Source: Candidatus Woesearchaeota archaeon (GTDB taxonomy: Archaea > Nanobdellota > Nanobdellia > Woesearchaeales > UBA12501). Taken from it: a stretch of 64,000 bases of DNA. The stretch lies in the NCBI GenBank assembly GCA_030651375.1, contig JAUSFM010000003.1:184718-248717 (forward strand), given 5' to 3'. The notes below the pieces were generated by a model. That model ran no database searches. It saw only the letters and a program-made list of their open reading frames with translations, and was not told where the DNA came from. Below are positions 51,063-53,285 of the stretch, in pieces; within the stretch, counting starts at the first letter, position 1; every line of letters starts with the position of its first letter. A program made the position numbers and the translations under genes.

Positions 51063-53285
51063 ATGTTCCCTGCAGTAGATGGCCAAAGAGAAGATGAACA
51101 AAGAGAAAACCCGGACGCCGTGATTACTGATGCACGTGATTATCTCCAGCTACTCCCGCCGAAGACCGCGTACCGAATGCCGCTCACGCACCGTGGCACG
51201 GTCAATTATCAGGGAGTGATTACCGTACCAGATGAAGCGTCACCCACGCTTTTCCGCCAAGAAATTCTTGAAGTTTCCATTGCGCTTTTGGGCAAGAAAA
51301 AAGTATATGGGGTGGGCATCAGGATATCACGTGACGAAACACTGGTTGCCGGCGCCGTGATTGAGTATGTGCCACCGAGCGGCCAAAAAAATCTTGCGGT
51401 GGTCGTTGCACCGGATACCCTGTCTGTTGAACGGTTAATAACAACAGAGGGAAACTATGATGTCGCATTTCGTTTTTCCACGCCCGAGCAACTACGGGCA
51501 TATCAGGCACGCAGGGGAATAAAAAAAAAAGCACCTGCAAAGCCACGACCCTATGAGAGGGATACTGCAAACGAAGGCGACTTAGTTGACGAGCTCAAAC
51601 AAAGGCAAGAAGCGGGTGAGGGATATAGACTCAAATTTGATGCGATACGAAAATATTTGAGCGAAATTGGGAAGATAGATCTGCTTACAAGAGAACAAGA
51701 AGTTTCCATGGCGCGCGCCATTGCCGAGTATGAACAGCAGGCGTGGAGCGCCGCAACACCGCTCATTGCAGCGGTGATTGCAACACTTCCGGAACAAGCA
51801 GAAGGATTTAGAACTGATATTGCCGACGCATATCGGGTTGCACAGAAGACTGCAGCCGGCGAGGAACTGACGGATAAAGAAAAAACAGCGCGCAAAAAAT
51901 TCTTTGATTATCGCGATGAAGCGAGCGAAAAGTTTGATGCAGCAAACCAGAGCAGTGTACTTGAAGCACTTGTCAAAGAATGTGCGAAACCGGAAAAGGA
52001 CCAGAAAACTATTGCCAGCCTGCTCACCAAAGCCGCGTTCTCACCAGAAATTCGCAGGATGCGTCCGAAAGAATATCGCCAGATGATATACGATTTCGAG
52101 GAAGAGCAGGAAGAGGTAAGCGAAGCTGACGAGGTTCAAGGATACTACCGGCTGTTGGGAAACAAAAAAATACGGCCCAATGAGTATAAAGAGTATGAAA
52201 AGAAACTCAAACCGCTTGATGCACTTATCAGCGCGTACAACCGCGCATTGGCGCCTGCAGACAGAATTAAAAAAAAGTTTGTGAATGCCAATTTGCGCCT
52301 TGTTGTTTCCATCGCCAAAAAATATACCAACCGTGGCATGGGATTTCTTGACCTGATCCAGGAAGGAAACATTGGGCTCATGCGCGCTATGGATAAGTTT
52401 GACTATAAGCGCGGCTACAAATTCTCAACCTATGCAACCTGGTGGGTCCGGCAGGCAATAACGCGCTCAATCGCTGACCAGGCAAGAACAATTCGCATAC
52501 CAGTGCACATGGTAGAGACGCTAAATAAAATAGTTCGTTATGAGCGAGAATATGTTGCAACCGAGGGGCGTGAGCCAACGCCGCAAGAAACCGCCAACTT
52601 TCTTGATATTACCGTTGCAACTGTGATAAAGGCAAAGCGAGTGGCCAAAGAGCCCATCTCTCTTGGAACACCGGTGGGGGATGACGAAAGTACCCTCGAA
52701 GATTTTATTGAAGACCCGAACTCGGTCAGGCCAGAAAAGGAAATAATGCGTAAAGGCCTCTCCGTAAGCGTGAACAGAACTCTCAGCAGATTGACACCGC
52801 GCGAAGAAAAGATTCTCCGTCTGCGGTTTGGCATTGGCGAATCCCGTGACCATACTCTCGAGGAAGTCGGCGTTGATTTTGAGTTGACCCGTGAACGCAT
52901 CCGCCAGATTGAGGCAAAAGCGTTGAGAAAATTGCGCCATCCGGCGAACGCGGGAAGCCTCAGACCGTATTATGAAGACGAATTAGAAGGACAGGGAAAA
53001 AGAAGGTATGTACCAGTCGGAGAGAGCAAAGAAGAAAAAGAAGCAGAGCGGCAAGAATTAGGCGATTATATAACAAGGCGGCTGACCGAGTTGGATAAAC
53101 CCCGGCGATGGCTTGCTGACCAAATGGGTGTAACCGAAACAACCATCTCGCATTATGTGATTGGTAAATCAGGACCGAGACCGGAGACACGCGAGCGATT
53201 GTTGAGCGTGCTTGGCGAATATGAGCTGGGAACTGATGAAACGCGTGAACAACCGGAAAGCGCAGAAGCAGTGAACAAAGACTAA
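51063..53285 (+). CDS. Bacterial-type primary (RpoD-like, group 1) sigma-70 factor with N-terminal extension and C-terminal XRE-type HTH extension
   Basis: Region 1.2 [26 protein letters not shown]; region 2 [82 protein letters not shown]; region 4.2 [28 protein letters not shown]; extra C-terminal [23 protein letters not shown]. Confidence 0.85.

Follow-up and report, generated by a model that had tools for sequence, protein, structure and literature searches.

A bacterial-type sigma-70 gene with an orphan N-terminal domain and a constant downstream neighbour in the chromosome of a Woesearchaeota archaeon

The window, that is, the whole 64-kb stretch of DNA analysed here, contains a long open reading frame whose source is labelled by NCBI as a Candidatus Woesearchaeota MAG and whose product is named a sigma-70 family factor (MDO8642199.1). 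The original prediction placed this gene at 51063–53285 and described it as an RpoD-like sigma-70 of bacterial derivation within a chromosome that is truly archaeal; our data agree with it on each of these points, the gene lying on the forward strand and coding for 740 aa. The features of the locus are collected in Table 1.

Table 1. Features of the sigma-70 locus; positions are those of the window.
Feature	Position	Strand	Remarks
Upstream neighbour, 179 aa	49884..50423	+	Conserved; 72–74% identity to L005/L007
Upstream neighbour, 166 aa	50493..50993	+	Conserved; hydrophobic segments at both ends; no family hits
Archaeal TATA box TTTATA, leaderless-type promoter of sigma	51035..51040	+	About 25–28 nt before the ATG
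Sigma-70 family gene	51063..53285	+	740 aa, ATG start, NCBI MDO8642199.1
Orphan N-terminal extension (aa 1–192), in place of region 1.1	51063..51638	+	Predicted beta-rich, not strongly acidic
Region 1.2 (aa 193–225)	51639..51737	+	PF00140, 1.1e-10; 9/14 bacterial-invariant positions retained
Non-conserved stretch between 1.2 and 2.1 (aa 226–399)	51738..52259	+	No Pfam match; fast-evolving
Region 2 (aa 400–480): core-binding 2.2, melting 2.3, -10 recognition 2.4	52260..52502	+	PF04542, 1e-22
Region 3 (aa 481–570): extended -10 H455/E458 equivalents and sigma finger	52503..52772	+	PF04539, 5e-18
Region 4 (aa 571–640): -35 recognition helix [19 protein letters not shown]	52773..52982	+	PF04545, 1e-16
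C-terminal tail (aa 641–740)	52983..53282	+	Probable XRE-type HTH at about aa 672–722 (nt 53076–53228)
TATA box of the partner gene	53313..53318	+	30 nt upstream of the partner
Downstream partner, 414 aa (orthologs 414–522 aa)	53343..54587	+	Orphan N- and C-terminal domains with a coiled coil of variable length between them

The four Pfam regions of the sigma-70 family follow one another in canonical order (Sigma70_r1_2 at aa 193–225, r2 at 407–476, r3 at 485–559, and r4 at 574–626), with scores of 41.7, 80.1, 65.5, and 60.4 bits against gathering scores of 22, 24, 25.3, and 24.1, respectively, and the same order is found in the orthologs L007 and P0128. The best matches in the PDB and NCBIfam are RpoD/SigA proteins (E. 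coli sigma-70; PDB 4jk1 chain X and 7ye1 chain F), which share this arrangement. All 19 checked residues for core binding, melting, and -10, extended -10 and -35 recognition are identical to those of E. coli sigma-70; in E. coli numbering these are L402, D403, Q406, E407, N409, M413, Y425, Y430, W433, W434, Q437, T440, and R441, the equivalents of H455 and E458 in region 3, and those of R584, E585, R588, and Q589 in region 4. Every position invariant in bacteria is retained in region 2.3 (17 of 17) and in region 2.4 (13 of 13), no archaeal lineage shows a change in the segment F428–M440 of region 2.2, and the -35 recognition helix is unchanged across the archaeal orthologs.

In other respects the protein departs from its bacterial counterparts. 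Pfam gave no match to region 1.1 (PF03979) in sigma, whereas most of the bacterial hits listed have this region, and the RpoD equivalog cut-offs of NCBIfam are missed (PRK05658, 461 against 555; PRK09210, 370 against 572; TIGR02393 RpoD_Cterm, 346.2 against 354). The conserved key residues of group 1 RpoD/SigA factors are thus found in the protein, but not the equivalog score, region 1.1 or a housekeeping role, and the description of a full-length, complete primary sigma, correct for regions 1.2, 2, 3, and 4, was slightly overstated. Near-identity to the bacterial consensus, also predicted, is seen in the two motifs quoted in its support (at aa 454 and 609) and at 147 of the 169 positions that are at least 95% invariant in bacterial RpoD, where the changes are conservative, but it does not extend to the region 2–4 core as a whole, which is only about 64% identical to bacterial RpoDs, compared with about 83% for bacterial RpoDs among themselves. 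Further differences from RpoD/SigA are an evolutionary rate above that of the neighbouring genes, additional domains at both ends, and a host that uses TATA promoters. The closest database matches outside the clade are bacterial RpoDs; however, among 5.8 billion proteins, no bacterial sequence is closer to the core than about 64% identity, so no recent donor is visible.

The N-terminal extension of about 190 aa is real, as had been predicted, and has no homologs outside the clade. It is weakly conserved among the orthologs (about 29% identity), and region 1.2 together with the stretch that follows it up to aa 399 shows 36% identity to the L007 ortholog. An exhaustive HMMER search of the extension against 1.84 billion representatives returned its own cluster and spurious repeat proteins only; the Ig-like and TPR repeat proteins among these were rejected as homologs, since small repeated matches add up to their scores. 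A profile search recovered three clusters, all within the clade, and comparison with the giant ORFs of the window itself gave no similarity. A scan of GTDB species representatives with the N-terminal 400 aa, which uses near-exact peptide patterns and is thus weak evidence, also gave nothing. The AF2 model of the extension has a pLDDT of 38, and its pI of 5.5–6.6 speaks against an acidic mimic of region 1.1.

In the C-terminal tail, HTH_3 reaches 21.4 bits when the full protein is searched and 23.6 bits with the tail alone (cut-off 23), and HTH_31 scores 24.9 bits (cut-off 27); in the PDB, the tail matches 3bs3 (E = 4.5e-4), 8tac (8e-4), and HigA antitoxins (0.03–0.05), and PHROG repressors match it at 1e-3. 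A C-terminal XRE-type HTH, part of the original prediction, is therefore marginal yet probable, being supported from several sides. It is confined to the sub-lineage of the window and P0001, the orthologs L005, L007, L009, and L090 having no such tail. The dN/dS of the tail is 0.69, a value that comes from 10 substitutions only. The extra terminal domains suggest a modified role, and the protein may plausibly have been repurposed as a DNA-binding regulator, as first proposed; the HTH tail that prompted this proposal belongs to the sub-lineage of the window alone.

The partner gene lies directly 3' of sigma wherever the pair is seen (L001–L004, L007, L009, and L090), and its homologs occur only at orthologous loci. 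The family has no match in Pfam, NCBIfam, PADLOC, or PHROG beyond weak ones of coiled-coil type, it is absent from IMG/VR, and scans of GTDB species representatives and metagenomes gave nothing, although these rely on near-exact peptide patterns and are weak evidence. The AF2 model has a pLDDT of 43. No recognisable anti-sigma domain was found by Pfam, NCBIfam, or PADLOC in the partner or in the upstream ORFs; nevertheless, given the conserved adjacency and the co-acceleration with sigma, the partner may have a role analogous to that of an anti-sigma factor. On the upstream side, the 166-aa gene precedes sigma in all loci that reach that far (64% identity to the L005 ortholog), and the hydrophobic segments of its product suggest a protein of the membrane or cell surface. 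The 179-aa gene is deleted in the L001/L002 strain, in which the window segment 49376–50429 has no counterpart. A functional tie of these two upstream genes to sigma is uncertain.

The genes around the locus are archaeal, as had been stated. Two aEF-2 genes in the flanks exceed the TIGR00490 cut-off, and L7Ae, S28e, L24e, PTH2, a class-Ib aaRS, an AMP phosphorylase, and an A24 peptidase with an archaeal-type C-terminus are also encoded there. The tRNAs without CCA, which had been counted among the archaeal signs, do lack an encoded CCA, but this feature is not diagnostic of archaea. A tRNA-Thr/tRNA-Val pair is located 1.7 kb upstream of sigma; an additional tRNA-like stretch at about 49690–49790, in the strain-variable segment, was rejected since neither Rfam nor ARAGORN supports it. 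GC content is heterogeneous across the window (33–55%). A defence-like low-GC island is found elsewhere in the window, the sigma locus lying outside it among housekeeping genes, and one of the other proteins encoded in the window, 2263 aa in length, contains a peptidoglycan amidase domain. The position of sigma is fixed between the A24 peptidase/tRNA cluster on one side and the genes for the AI-2E transporter and the AMP phosphorylase on the other. With a reproducible locus on contigs whose other genes are archaeal, sigma belongs with the sigma-70 homologs of DPANN archaea (Woesearchaeota).

Archaea start transcription with TBP, TFB, and TFE. TTTAWA boxes are present at -27 to -33 from the ATG in 12 genes of the window, including aEF-2, Pth2, and AI-2E. 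The TATA box of sigma is conserved in L001, L005, and L007, and the TATAAT-like string beside the ATG is not. A sigma-70-like reading of this region, TTTATA-N18-TATAAT overlapping the start of sigma, was therefore rejected in favour of an archaeal TATA box. Over the whole 64-kb window, sigma-70-type promoters with -35 and -10 elements are not in excess (16 against 19.8 ± 4.5 in shuffles that keep local composition); an apparent enrichment of promoter-like sites in the 47–60 kb segment (26 against 13.8) disappeared in this whole-window test. It should be noted that the test covers these 64 kb, and targets of sigma could lie elsewhere.

The same junctions on both sides of sigma are found in contigs of five deposited assemblies of near-identical strains (L001–L004 and a 262-kb NCBI MAG contig; ENA ERZ909605, NCBI GCA_900218215.1, ENA ERZ27253369, Logan SRR13727527, and the NCBI contig), which come from different samples and assemblers; since L001 and L002 possibly belong to one project, at least three or four of them are independent. 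The same gene order is kept in three more divergent lineages (L005/L006/L007, L009, and L090). In neighbour-joining trees, the archaeal sigmas are monophyletic, with bootstrap values of 170/200 for the core and 198/200 for regions 1.2–4, although the branches are long and long-branch attraction is possible; the conserved gene order and the N-terminal domain common to these proteins are arguments for orthology that do not depend on the tree. The gene has been inherited vertically and is under purifying selection, with a dN/dS of 0.24 overall and 0.17 in regions 2–4 (two close alleles with only 55 substitutions). Between the same genomes, sigma is 45% identical (66% in the core) and the partner 50–54%, against 59–87% for the neighbours, so that no other gene of the locus evolves as fast as these two.

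Sigma-70 genes of Woesearchaeota were published in 2021, mis-binning being excluded (Castelle et al. 2021, fam00359; PMC8204110), and according to a review (PMC6126073), archaeal sigma factors were first described by Rinke et al. in 2013. The headline observation, sigma-70 genes in DPANN archaea, is thus not new. The published genes resemble ours in that a bacterial-type sigma-70 lies on a contig with archaeal markers in Woesearchaeota and has no recognisable anti-sigma factor; the genomes that carry them have TBP, TFB, and TFE, and no anti-sigma factor was found in them (PMC8204110). The published description differs from the present one in giving no architecture, neighbourhood, or rates. Beyond it, we document here the orphan N-terminal domain, the partner gene, the archaeal promoter, the accelerated evolution, and the XRE HTH fusion.

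Three accounts of the origin of the gene compete with long-standing residence in the archaeal lineage. An assembly chimera or mis-binning, in which a bacterial fragment is joined to archaeal sequence, is a priori the commonest cause of a bacterial marker in an archaeal MAG, and the GC content of the window is indeed uneven elsewhere. The prediction of a possible mis-assembly is nonetheless effectively refuted by the recurrence of both junctions in several independent assemblies, by the synteny in the three divergent lineages, by the archaeal TATA promoter, and by the published exclusion of mis-binning for such genes (PMC8204110). The comparison of GC and codon usage with the flanks, which the original prediction had named as a check, counts in the same direction: sigma is typical of its surroundings (GC 0.489, GC3 0.468, codon-usage distance 0.12). 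This host-like composition, together with the fixed locus, also bears on the second account, the recent transfer of a complete bacterial rpoD that persists as a non-functional passenger heading for decay. The key motifs identical to E. coli sigma-70 and the bacterial RpoDs as best matches outside the clade would fit such a transfer. Against it stand the same locus in four lineages whose neighbour proteins are only 59–87% identical, the monophyly of the archaeal sigmas in the phylogeny that had been proposed as a test (170/200 and 198/200), the conserved archaeal TATA box, the intact 740-aa ORF with its dN/dS of 0.24, the lineage-specific domain architecture, and a core that shares no more than about 64% identity with any of the bacterial sequences in the 5.8 billion proteins; the recent transfer put forward earlier is thus very improbable. 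Insertion of a virus or mobile-element gene beside the tRNA-Thr/tRNA-Val pair is hardly credible. The two tRNA genes 1.7 kb upstream, a strain-variable 1-kb indel right after tRNA-Val, and a match to PHROG 351 (phage sigma factors) at 2.5e-98 would point to it. However, no integrase or capsid gene and no further PHROG family was found in the four-gene block, IMG/VR lacks the partner, the viral contigs there hold only generic RpoD-like cores of 49–66% identity, and the block, host-like in composition, keeps its position throughout the divergent lineages. Phage sigma factors share with the window sigma a place in the sigma-70 family outside the housekeeping sigma role of the host; unlike them, the window sigma resides stably in an archaeal chromosome and is found in neither a viral nor a mobile context.

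Very probably, then, a bacterial group-1-type sigma-70 entered the ancestor of a narrow clade of Woesearchaeota (DPANN) in a single acquisition, was then passed on vertically, and became fully naturalised. Its promoter is now of the archaeal TATA/leaderless type, like those of its housekeeping neighbours, its codon usage is that of the host, and its place in the chromosome is fixed. In the course of its domestication, region 1.1 would have been lost or replaced by the orphan domain of about 190 aa, a fast-evolving coiled-coil partner gene would have become fixed directly downstream, and in the sub-lineage of the window an XRE-type HTH would have been fused to the C-terminus. As a working mode we tentatively suggest, at rather less than even confidence, an accessory transcription regulator of sigma type that docks on RNAP and binds DNA; the reading that joins this mode to the identity of the gene is the best explanation overall, and we lean towards it slightly. 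Sigma is most likely not the general initiation factor of the cell; the window genes, sigma included, carry TATA-box promoters, and -35/-10 promoters show no excess. Regions 2.4, 3.0, and 4.2 may let it bind DNA of -10-like and -35-like sequence, with help from the extra HTH in the window lineage. Region 1.1, which in E. coli reportedly keeps free sigma from binding DNA (Dombroski et al.), is missing here, and DNA binding could occur without core. The surface-exposed residues of region 2.2 serve the docking of sigma on the RNAP clamp coiled-coil; TFE and Spt5 use the homologous site, the clamp coiled-coil of archaeal RNAP. The strict retention of these residues in all lineages suggests that sigma probably still docks on an RNA polymerase, which would be the archaeal RNAP, the only polymerase presumed present. 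As a counterpoint, a switch from bacterial beta' to archaeal Rpo1 might be expected to alter region 2.2, yet it is identical to that of E. coli. Among candidates for a regulator of sigma, the downstream gene that co-evolves with it ranks first, and its product may act in an anti-sigma-like manner.

Other modes of action must be weighed against an accessory regulator docked on the archaeal polymerase. A stand-alone DNA-binding transcription factor, which uses regions 2 and 4 and, where present, the XRE HTH with no contact to RNA polymerase, would agree with the conserved DNA-recognition residues, with the extra HTH fused in the window lineage, with the TATA promoters of the genome, and with the absence of region 1.1, which in E. 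coli sigma-70 is autoinhibitory for DNA binding by free sigma. Since the -10 consensus TATAAT is like an archaeal TATA box, competition with TBP is conceivable. Such a factor leaves unexplained why the region 2.2 docking residues and the region 2.3 melting aromatics are invariant despite 35% core divergence elsewhere, and we regard it as rather unlikely. A defence or conflict component comparable to MzaA, which is sigma-like and part of the MZA anti-phage system, and assisted by the partner as co-factor, is improbable. In its favour, sigma and the partner evolve faster than anything else at the locus. MzaA (NF041931, PADLOC PDLC02203) is likewise long, belongs to the sigma-70 family, and departs from the canonical form in its N-terminal part, and the window sigma matches it over aa 169–640 (NCBIfam, 354.9 bits; PADLOC, 1.5e-61). 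The NCBIfam score is far below the cut-off of 800 and below the 461 bits for RpoD, so that the match is generic sigma similarity and the protein is no closer to MzaA than to ordinary RpoD; besides, no neighbour matches MzaB–E or any PADLOC model, and the locus lies among housekeeping genes. A cross-domain effector, by which sigma would act on the RNAP of a bacterium, either host or partner of the archaeon, and redirect the transcription of that bacterium as phage sigma factors do, would jointly explain why the bacterial determinants are intact, why the rest of the protein and the partner evolve as fast as in an arms race, and why sigma-70 promoters are absent from the archaeon's own DNA. Exactly the determinants for bacterial core RNAP and -35/-10 promoters are retained, the outer parts of the protein and the partner change fast, in the manner of conflict systems, the archaeon's own window has no excess of sigma-70 promoters, and the 2263-aa protein with its peptidoglycan amidase domain hints at contact with bacterial cell walls. 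On the other hand, no obvious signal peptide or secretion-system neighbour was seen, and the DPANN hosts known so far are archaea (PMC8204110); we consider this idea, which is wholly inferential, highly unlikely.

Taken together, a conserved sigma factor under purifying selection and behind an archaeal promoter has no obvious job beside TBP, TFB, and TFE. All residues for RNAP docking and for -10 and -35 recognition are kept, yet the gene evolves faster than its neighbours and has a dedicated partner, which argues for a real, non-housekeeping function linked to RNAP. If sigma docks on the clamp of archaeal RNAP, it would create a hybrid bacterial/archaeal initiation or regulatory pathway; whether on the archaeal enzyme or on that of a bacterial partner, such action, if true, would be a new mode of cross-domain transcription control.

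The open reading frame predicted as a sigma factor is present as described, with an ATG start, and the top matches of its product are RpoD/SigA proteins (NCBIfam, PDB); an identical protein, MDO8642199.1 (NCBI), annotated as a sigma-70 family factor, comes from a 262-kb MAG contig.

Features of the sigma gene, its locus, and the rest of the window (window positions unless stated otherwise)
Feature	Position	Strand	Details
Sigma gene	51063–53285	+	740 aa
Sigma region 1.2	aa 193–225		Pfam, far over gathering score
Sigma region 2	aa 407–476		Pfam, far over gathering score
Sigma region 3	aa 485–559		Pfam, far over gathering score
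Sigma region 4	aa 574–626		Pfam, far over gathering score
TTTAWA box, sigma	−28 from start codon		
Partner gene	53343–54587	+	414 aa
TTTAWA box, partner	−30 from start codon		
HTH_8 protein	58589–59245	−	216–218 aa; bacterial Fis-type HTH_8 (4e-9)
tRNA-Val	49269–49344		
Segment with 179-aa ORF	49376–50429		1054 bp
aEF-2 paralogs	38068–40314; 41094–43238	−; −	910 and 845 bits
HNH endonuclease	6272–6961		low-GC island
Schlafen-group-3-type helicase	7405–9327		1e-88; low-GC island
MazG-like protein	9329–9970		low-GC island
HEPN-domain and nucleotidyltransferase genes	12729–13250; 13240–13809	−; −	overlapping; Polbeta/NTP_transf_2
DUF2779 protein	14858–16315	−	485 aa; strong match (1e-43)
Amidase ORF	16359–23150	−	2263 aa; Amidase_2 (2e-18) at aa 1868–2022
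Giant ORFs	23181–25142; 26032–31386; 31426–35040	−; −; −	653, 1784, and 1204 aa; no Pfam match

The original prediction of a full-length primary sigma factor holds for regions 1.2, 2, 3, and 4, but region 1.1 (PF03979), which most of the bacterial matches listed have, was not found by Pfam, and the protein scores below all RpoD equivalog cut-offs in NCBIfam (461 vs. 555 bits; RpoD_Cterm, 346 vs. 354). Near identity to the bacterial consensus is seen in particular motifs (the two that had been singled out lie at aa 454 and aa 609) but not in the whole core of regions 2–4, which is about 64% identical to bacterial RpoDs, compared with about 83% among the latter. The predicted N-terminal extension was borne out as an orphan domain (aa 1–192) common to the archaeal orthologs; when 1.84 billion representatives were searched exhaustively with HMMER, the protein's own cluster and spurious repeat proteins were the sole matches, and a profile of the N-terminal half gave three clusters and no more among 5.8 billion proteins. 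The domain is not strongly acidic and is therefore no obvious mimic of region 1.1. For the predicted C-terminal XRE-type HTH, weak signals from several sides, including two sub-threshold Pfam matches at aa 676–718, point to its presence in a tail that is limited to the sub-lineage of the window (P0001) and absent from the other archaeal orthologs compared.

The sigma protein keeps 147 of the 169 positions that are at least 95% invariant in bacterial RpoD (17/17 in region 2.3 and 13/13 in region 2.4), and the replacements are conservative. All 19 E. coli sigma-70 residues checked, mapped via a PDB alignment, are identical; they are those of core binding (L402, D403, Q406, E407, N409, M413), melting (Y425, Y430, W433, W434), the −10 element (Q437, T440, R441), the extended −10 (H455, E458), and the −35 element (R584, E585, R588, Q589). 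Their equivalents are invariant across the sigmas of the window, the divergent locus L007, and the ortholog P0128. Sites resembling TTGACA-N16–18-TATAAT show no excess in the 64-kb window (16, against 19.8 ± 4.5 in local-composition shuffles), and most of them lie inside genes.

The flanks are archaeal, as had been claimed: they hold two aEF-2 genes, an archaeal-type AMP phosphorylase, an A24 peptidase whose C-terminus is of archaeal type, and, from precomputed Pfam matches, L7Ae, S28e, L24e, Pth2, and a class-Ib aminoacyl-tRNA synthetase. No gene for an RNA polymerase (RNAP) subunit or basal transcription factor, bacterial or archaeal, was found within the 64-kb window. Both aEF-2 paralogs exceed the TIGR00490 cut-off of 738 bits, and in the 0.8 kb between them lies a 250-aa ORF on the opposite strand. 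Twelve window genes, including aEF-2, Pth2, and AI-2E, have TTTAWA between −27 and −33 relative to the start codon, a clustering that is the archaeal TATA/leaderless layout; the box upstream of sigma is kept in the divergent loci, whereas a TATAAT-like string beside the ATG is not. In many window genes the motif stands exactly 27–33 nt before the ATG, with no Shine–Dalgarno spacing, which indicates that transcripts in this Woesearchaeon are probably predominantly leaderless.

Mis-assembly, one of the two origins originally offered, is contradicted by the recurrence of sigma and both junctions in contigs assembled from different samples with different assemblers; they are present at 97–98% nucleotide identity in near-identical strains (L001, an ENA groundwater metagenome; L002, NCBI GCA_900218215.1, possibly from the same project; L003, an ENA contig; L004, a Logan contig), and a chimera is the least probable of all the readings considered. 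The other, recent transfer, is opposed by fixed synteny across divergent lineages, an archaeal clade, host-like composition, and the archaeal TATA box. The order A24 peptidase, ~180-aa ORF, ~170-aa ORF, sigma, partner, AI-2E transporter, AMP phosphorylase is common to L005/L006/L007, L009, and L090, and partner homologs are restricted to orthologous loci. The sigma-domain phylogeny proposed with the original prediction places the archaeal sigmas in one clade against 119 bacterial RpoDs in 170/200 bootstraps (core) and 198/200 (regions 1.2 to 4), in NJ trees with long archaeal branches. The gene is typical of its flanks (GC 0.489, GC3 0.468, codon-usage distance 0.12), and dN/dS between two close alleles, from only 55 substitutions, comes to 0.24 for the whole gene and 0.17 for regions 2–4. 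Taken together, these data make sigma a naturalised, vertically inherited, and selected part of the genome, and we are highly confident that it is a genuine domesticated gene; recent passenger transfer is a very remote prospect, and a mobile element a remoter one. The original observation stands, and its interpretation stands in part, with recent transfer and mis-assembly set aside.

Nucleotide identity between L001 and the window changes from 91% at 48164–49188 (A24 peptidase region) to 98.4% at 50430–59092 (sigma to orf438), and adjacent genes differ 10-fold in dS (0.016–0.157), which suggests recombination between strains at the sigma locus. The 1054-bp segment beside tRNA-Val, whose 179-aa ORF is conserved, has no counterpart in L001 and L002 and is present in the more distant L005 and L007; its absence is a strain-level deletion by the tRNA pair. 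At the matching position, L005 has tRNA-Pro in place of tRNA-Thr/Val.

The partner (414–522 aa) directly follows sigma at every orthologous locus and consists of orphan N- and C-terminal domains with a coiled coil of variable length between them. Compared with their counterparts at the divergent loci, the neighbours of sigma in the window are 59–87% identical (A24 76%, AI-2E 78–79%, AMP phosphorylase 81–87%, HTH_8 protein 86% in L005), whereas sigma reaches 45% (N-terminal domain 29%, region 1.2 with the non-conserved region 36%, core 66%) and the partner 50–54%; these two genes also have the highest dN/dS between close alleles. No additional loci emerged when GTDB and the JGI metagenomes were scanned by pattern, a weakly negative result given the near-exact peptide patterns. 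In L005, extra ORFs (81, 241, 324, 41, and 439 aa) lie 3′ of the partner at 8839–12711, one with a weak match to an uncharacterised PHROG family; the 324-aa ORF, with no Pfam match recorded, takes the position of the 357-aa AI-2E transporter of L006. The HTH_8 domain, which resembles the C-terminus of NtrC-type activators, is a second bacterial-style regulator domain near sigma.

Elsewhere in the window, a low-GC island at ~5500–12500 (31–38% vs. ~49%), deviant in codon usage (distance 0.23–0.33), looks like a horizontally acquired, defence-type region. The HEPN and nucleotidyltransferase genes probably form a typical HEPN/MNT toxin-antitoxin-like pair, and the DUF2779 protein lies between them and the giant ORFs. 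The amidase domain of the largest ORF (N-acetylmuramoyl-L-alanine type) would give this DPANN archaeon a peptidoglycan hydrolase, which hints at contact with bacterial cell walls; the other giant ORFs, which lie in one run with it, have a slightly higher GC content (52–54%).

Sigma is no housekeeping initiation factor, given the TATA promoters of the genome and the rapid evolution of the gene; nor is it a decaying passenger. The docking residues of region 2.2, surface-exposed and dispensable for folding and DNA binding, are strictly retained, which argues that sigma still docks on an RNAP clamp coiled-coil, and the preservation of regions 2.4, 3.0, and 4.2 speaks for continued reading of −10/−35-like DNA. 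This conservation would be unexplained in regions 2.2 and 2.3 if sigma were a polymerase-independent DNA-binding factor, which we consider unlikely. In E. coli, region 1.1 blocks DNA binding by free sigma, so its loss should make binding possible without core; TFE and Spt5 use a clamp site on archaeal RNAP homologous to the sigma docking site. We tentatively propose an accessory sigma-type regulator that would bind DNA and dock on the archaeal RNAP clamp, with the co-evolving partner regulating it and the XRE HTH tail serving as an added DNA-binding module in this lineage; docking, DNA binding, and partner regulation together are possible, though short of probable.

A role in defence or conflict, by analogy with MzaA, is improbable, as neither the MzaA score nor the neighbouring genes fit. 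Sigma might also be an effector acting on the RNAP of a bacterial partner, an attractive reading that would explain the intact bacterial determinants, the rapid evolution of the periphery, and perhaps the giant protein with a peptidoglycan amidase close by; with no sign that the protein is exported or that the host is a bacterium, this is very improbable.

In the available text of Castelle et al. 2021 (PMC8204110), sigma-70 family genes are "particularly prevalent in Woesearchaeota", mis-binning is ruled out, a search for anti-sigma factors found none, TBP/TFB/TFE are also encoded, and function is left open; the available text of a review (PMC6126073) credits the first description of archaeal sigma factors to Rinke et al. 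2013. The headline observation is thus already known, and the architecture, HTH tail, partner, rate asymmetry, residue retention, and promoter test are absent from those texts. The sigma gene is a further well-documented member of the reported DPANN/Woesearchaeota sigma-70 class, distinctive in its architecture and accompanied by a partner gene that is conserved, and its intact RNAP-docking and promoter-reading residues, combined with accelerated, partner-linked evolution, make the functional question testable.
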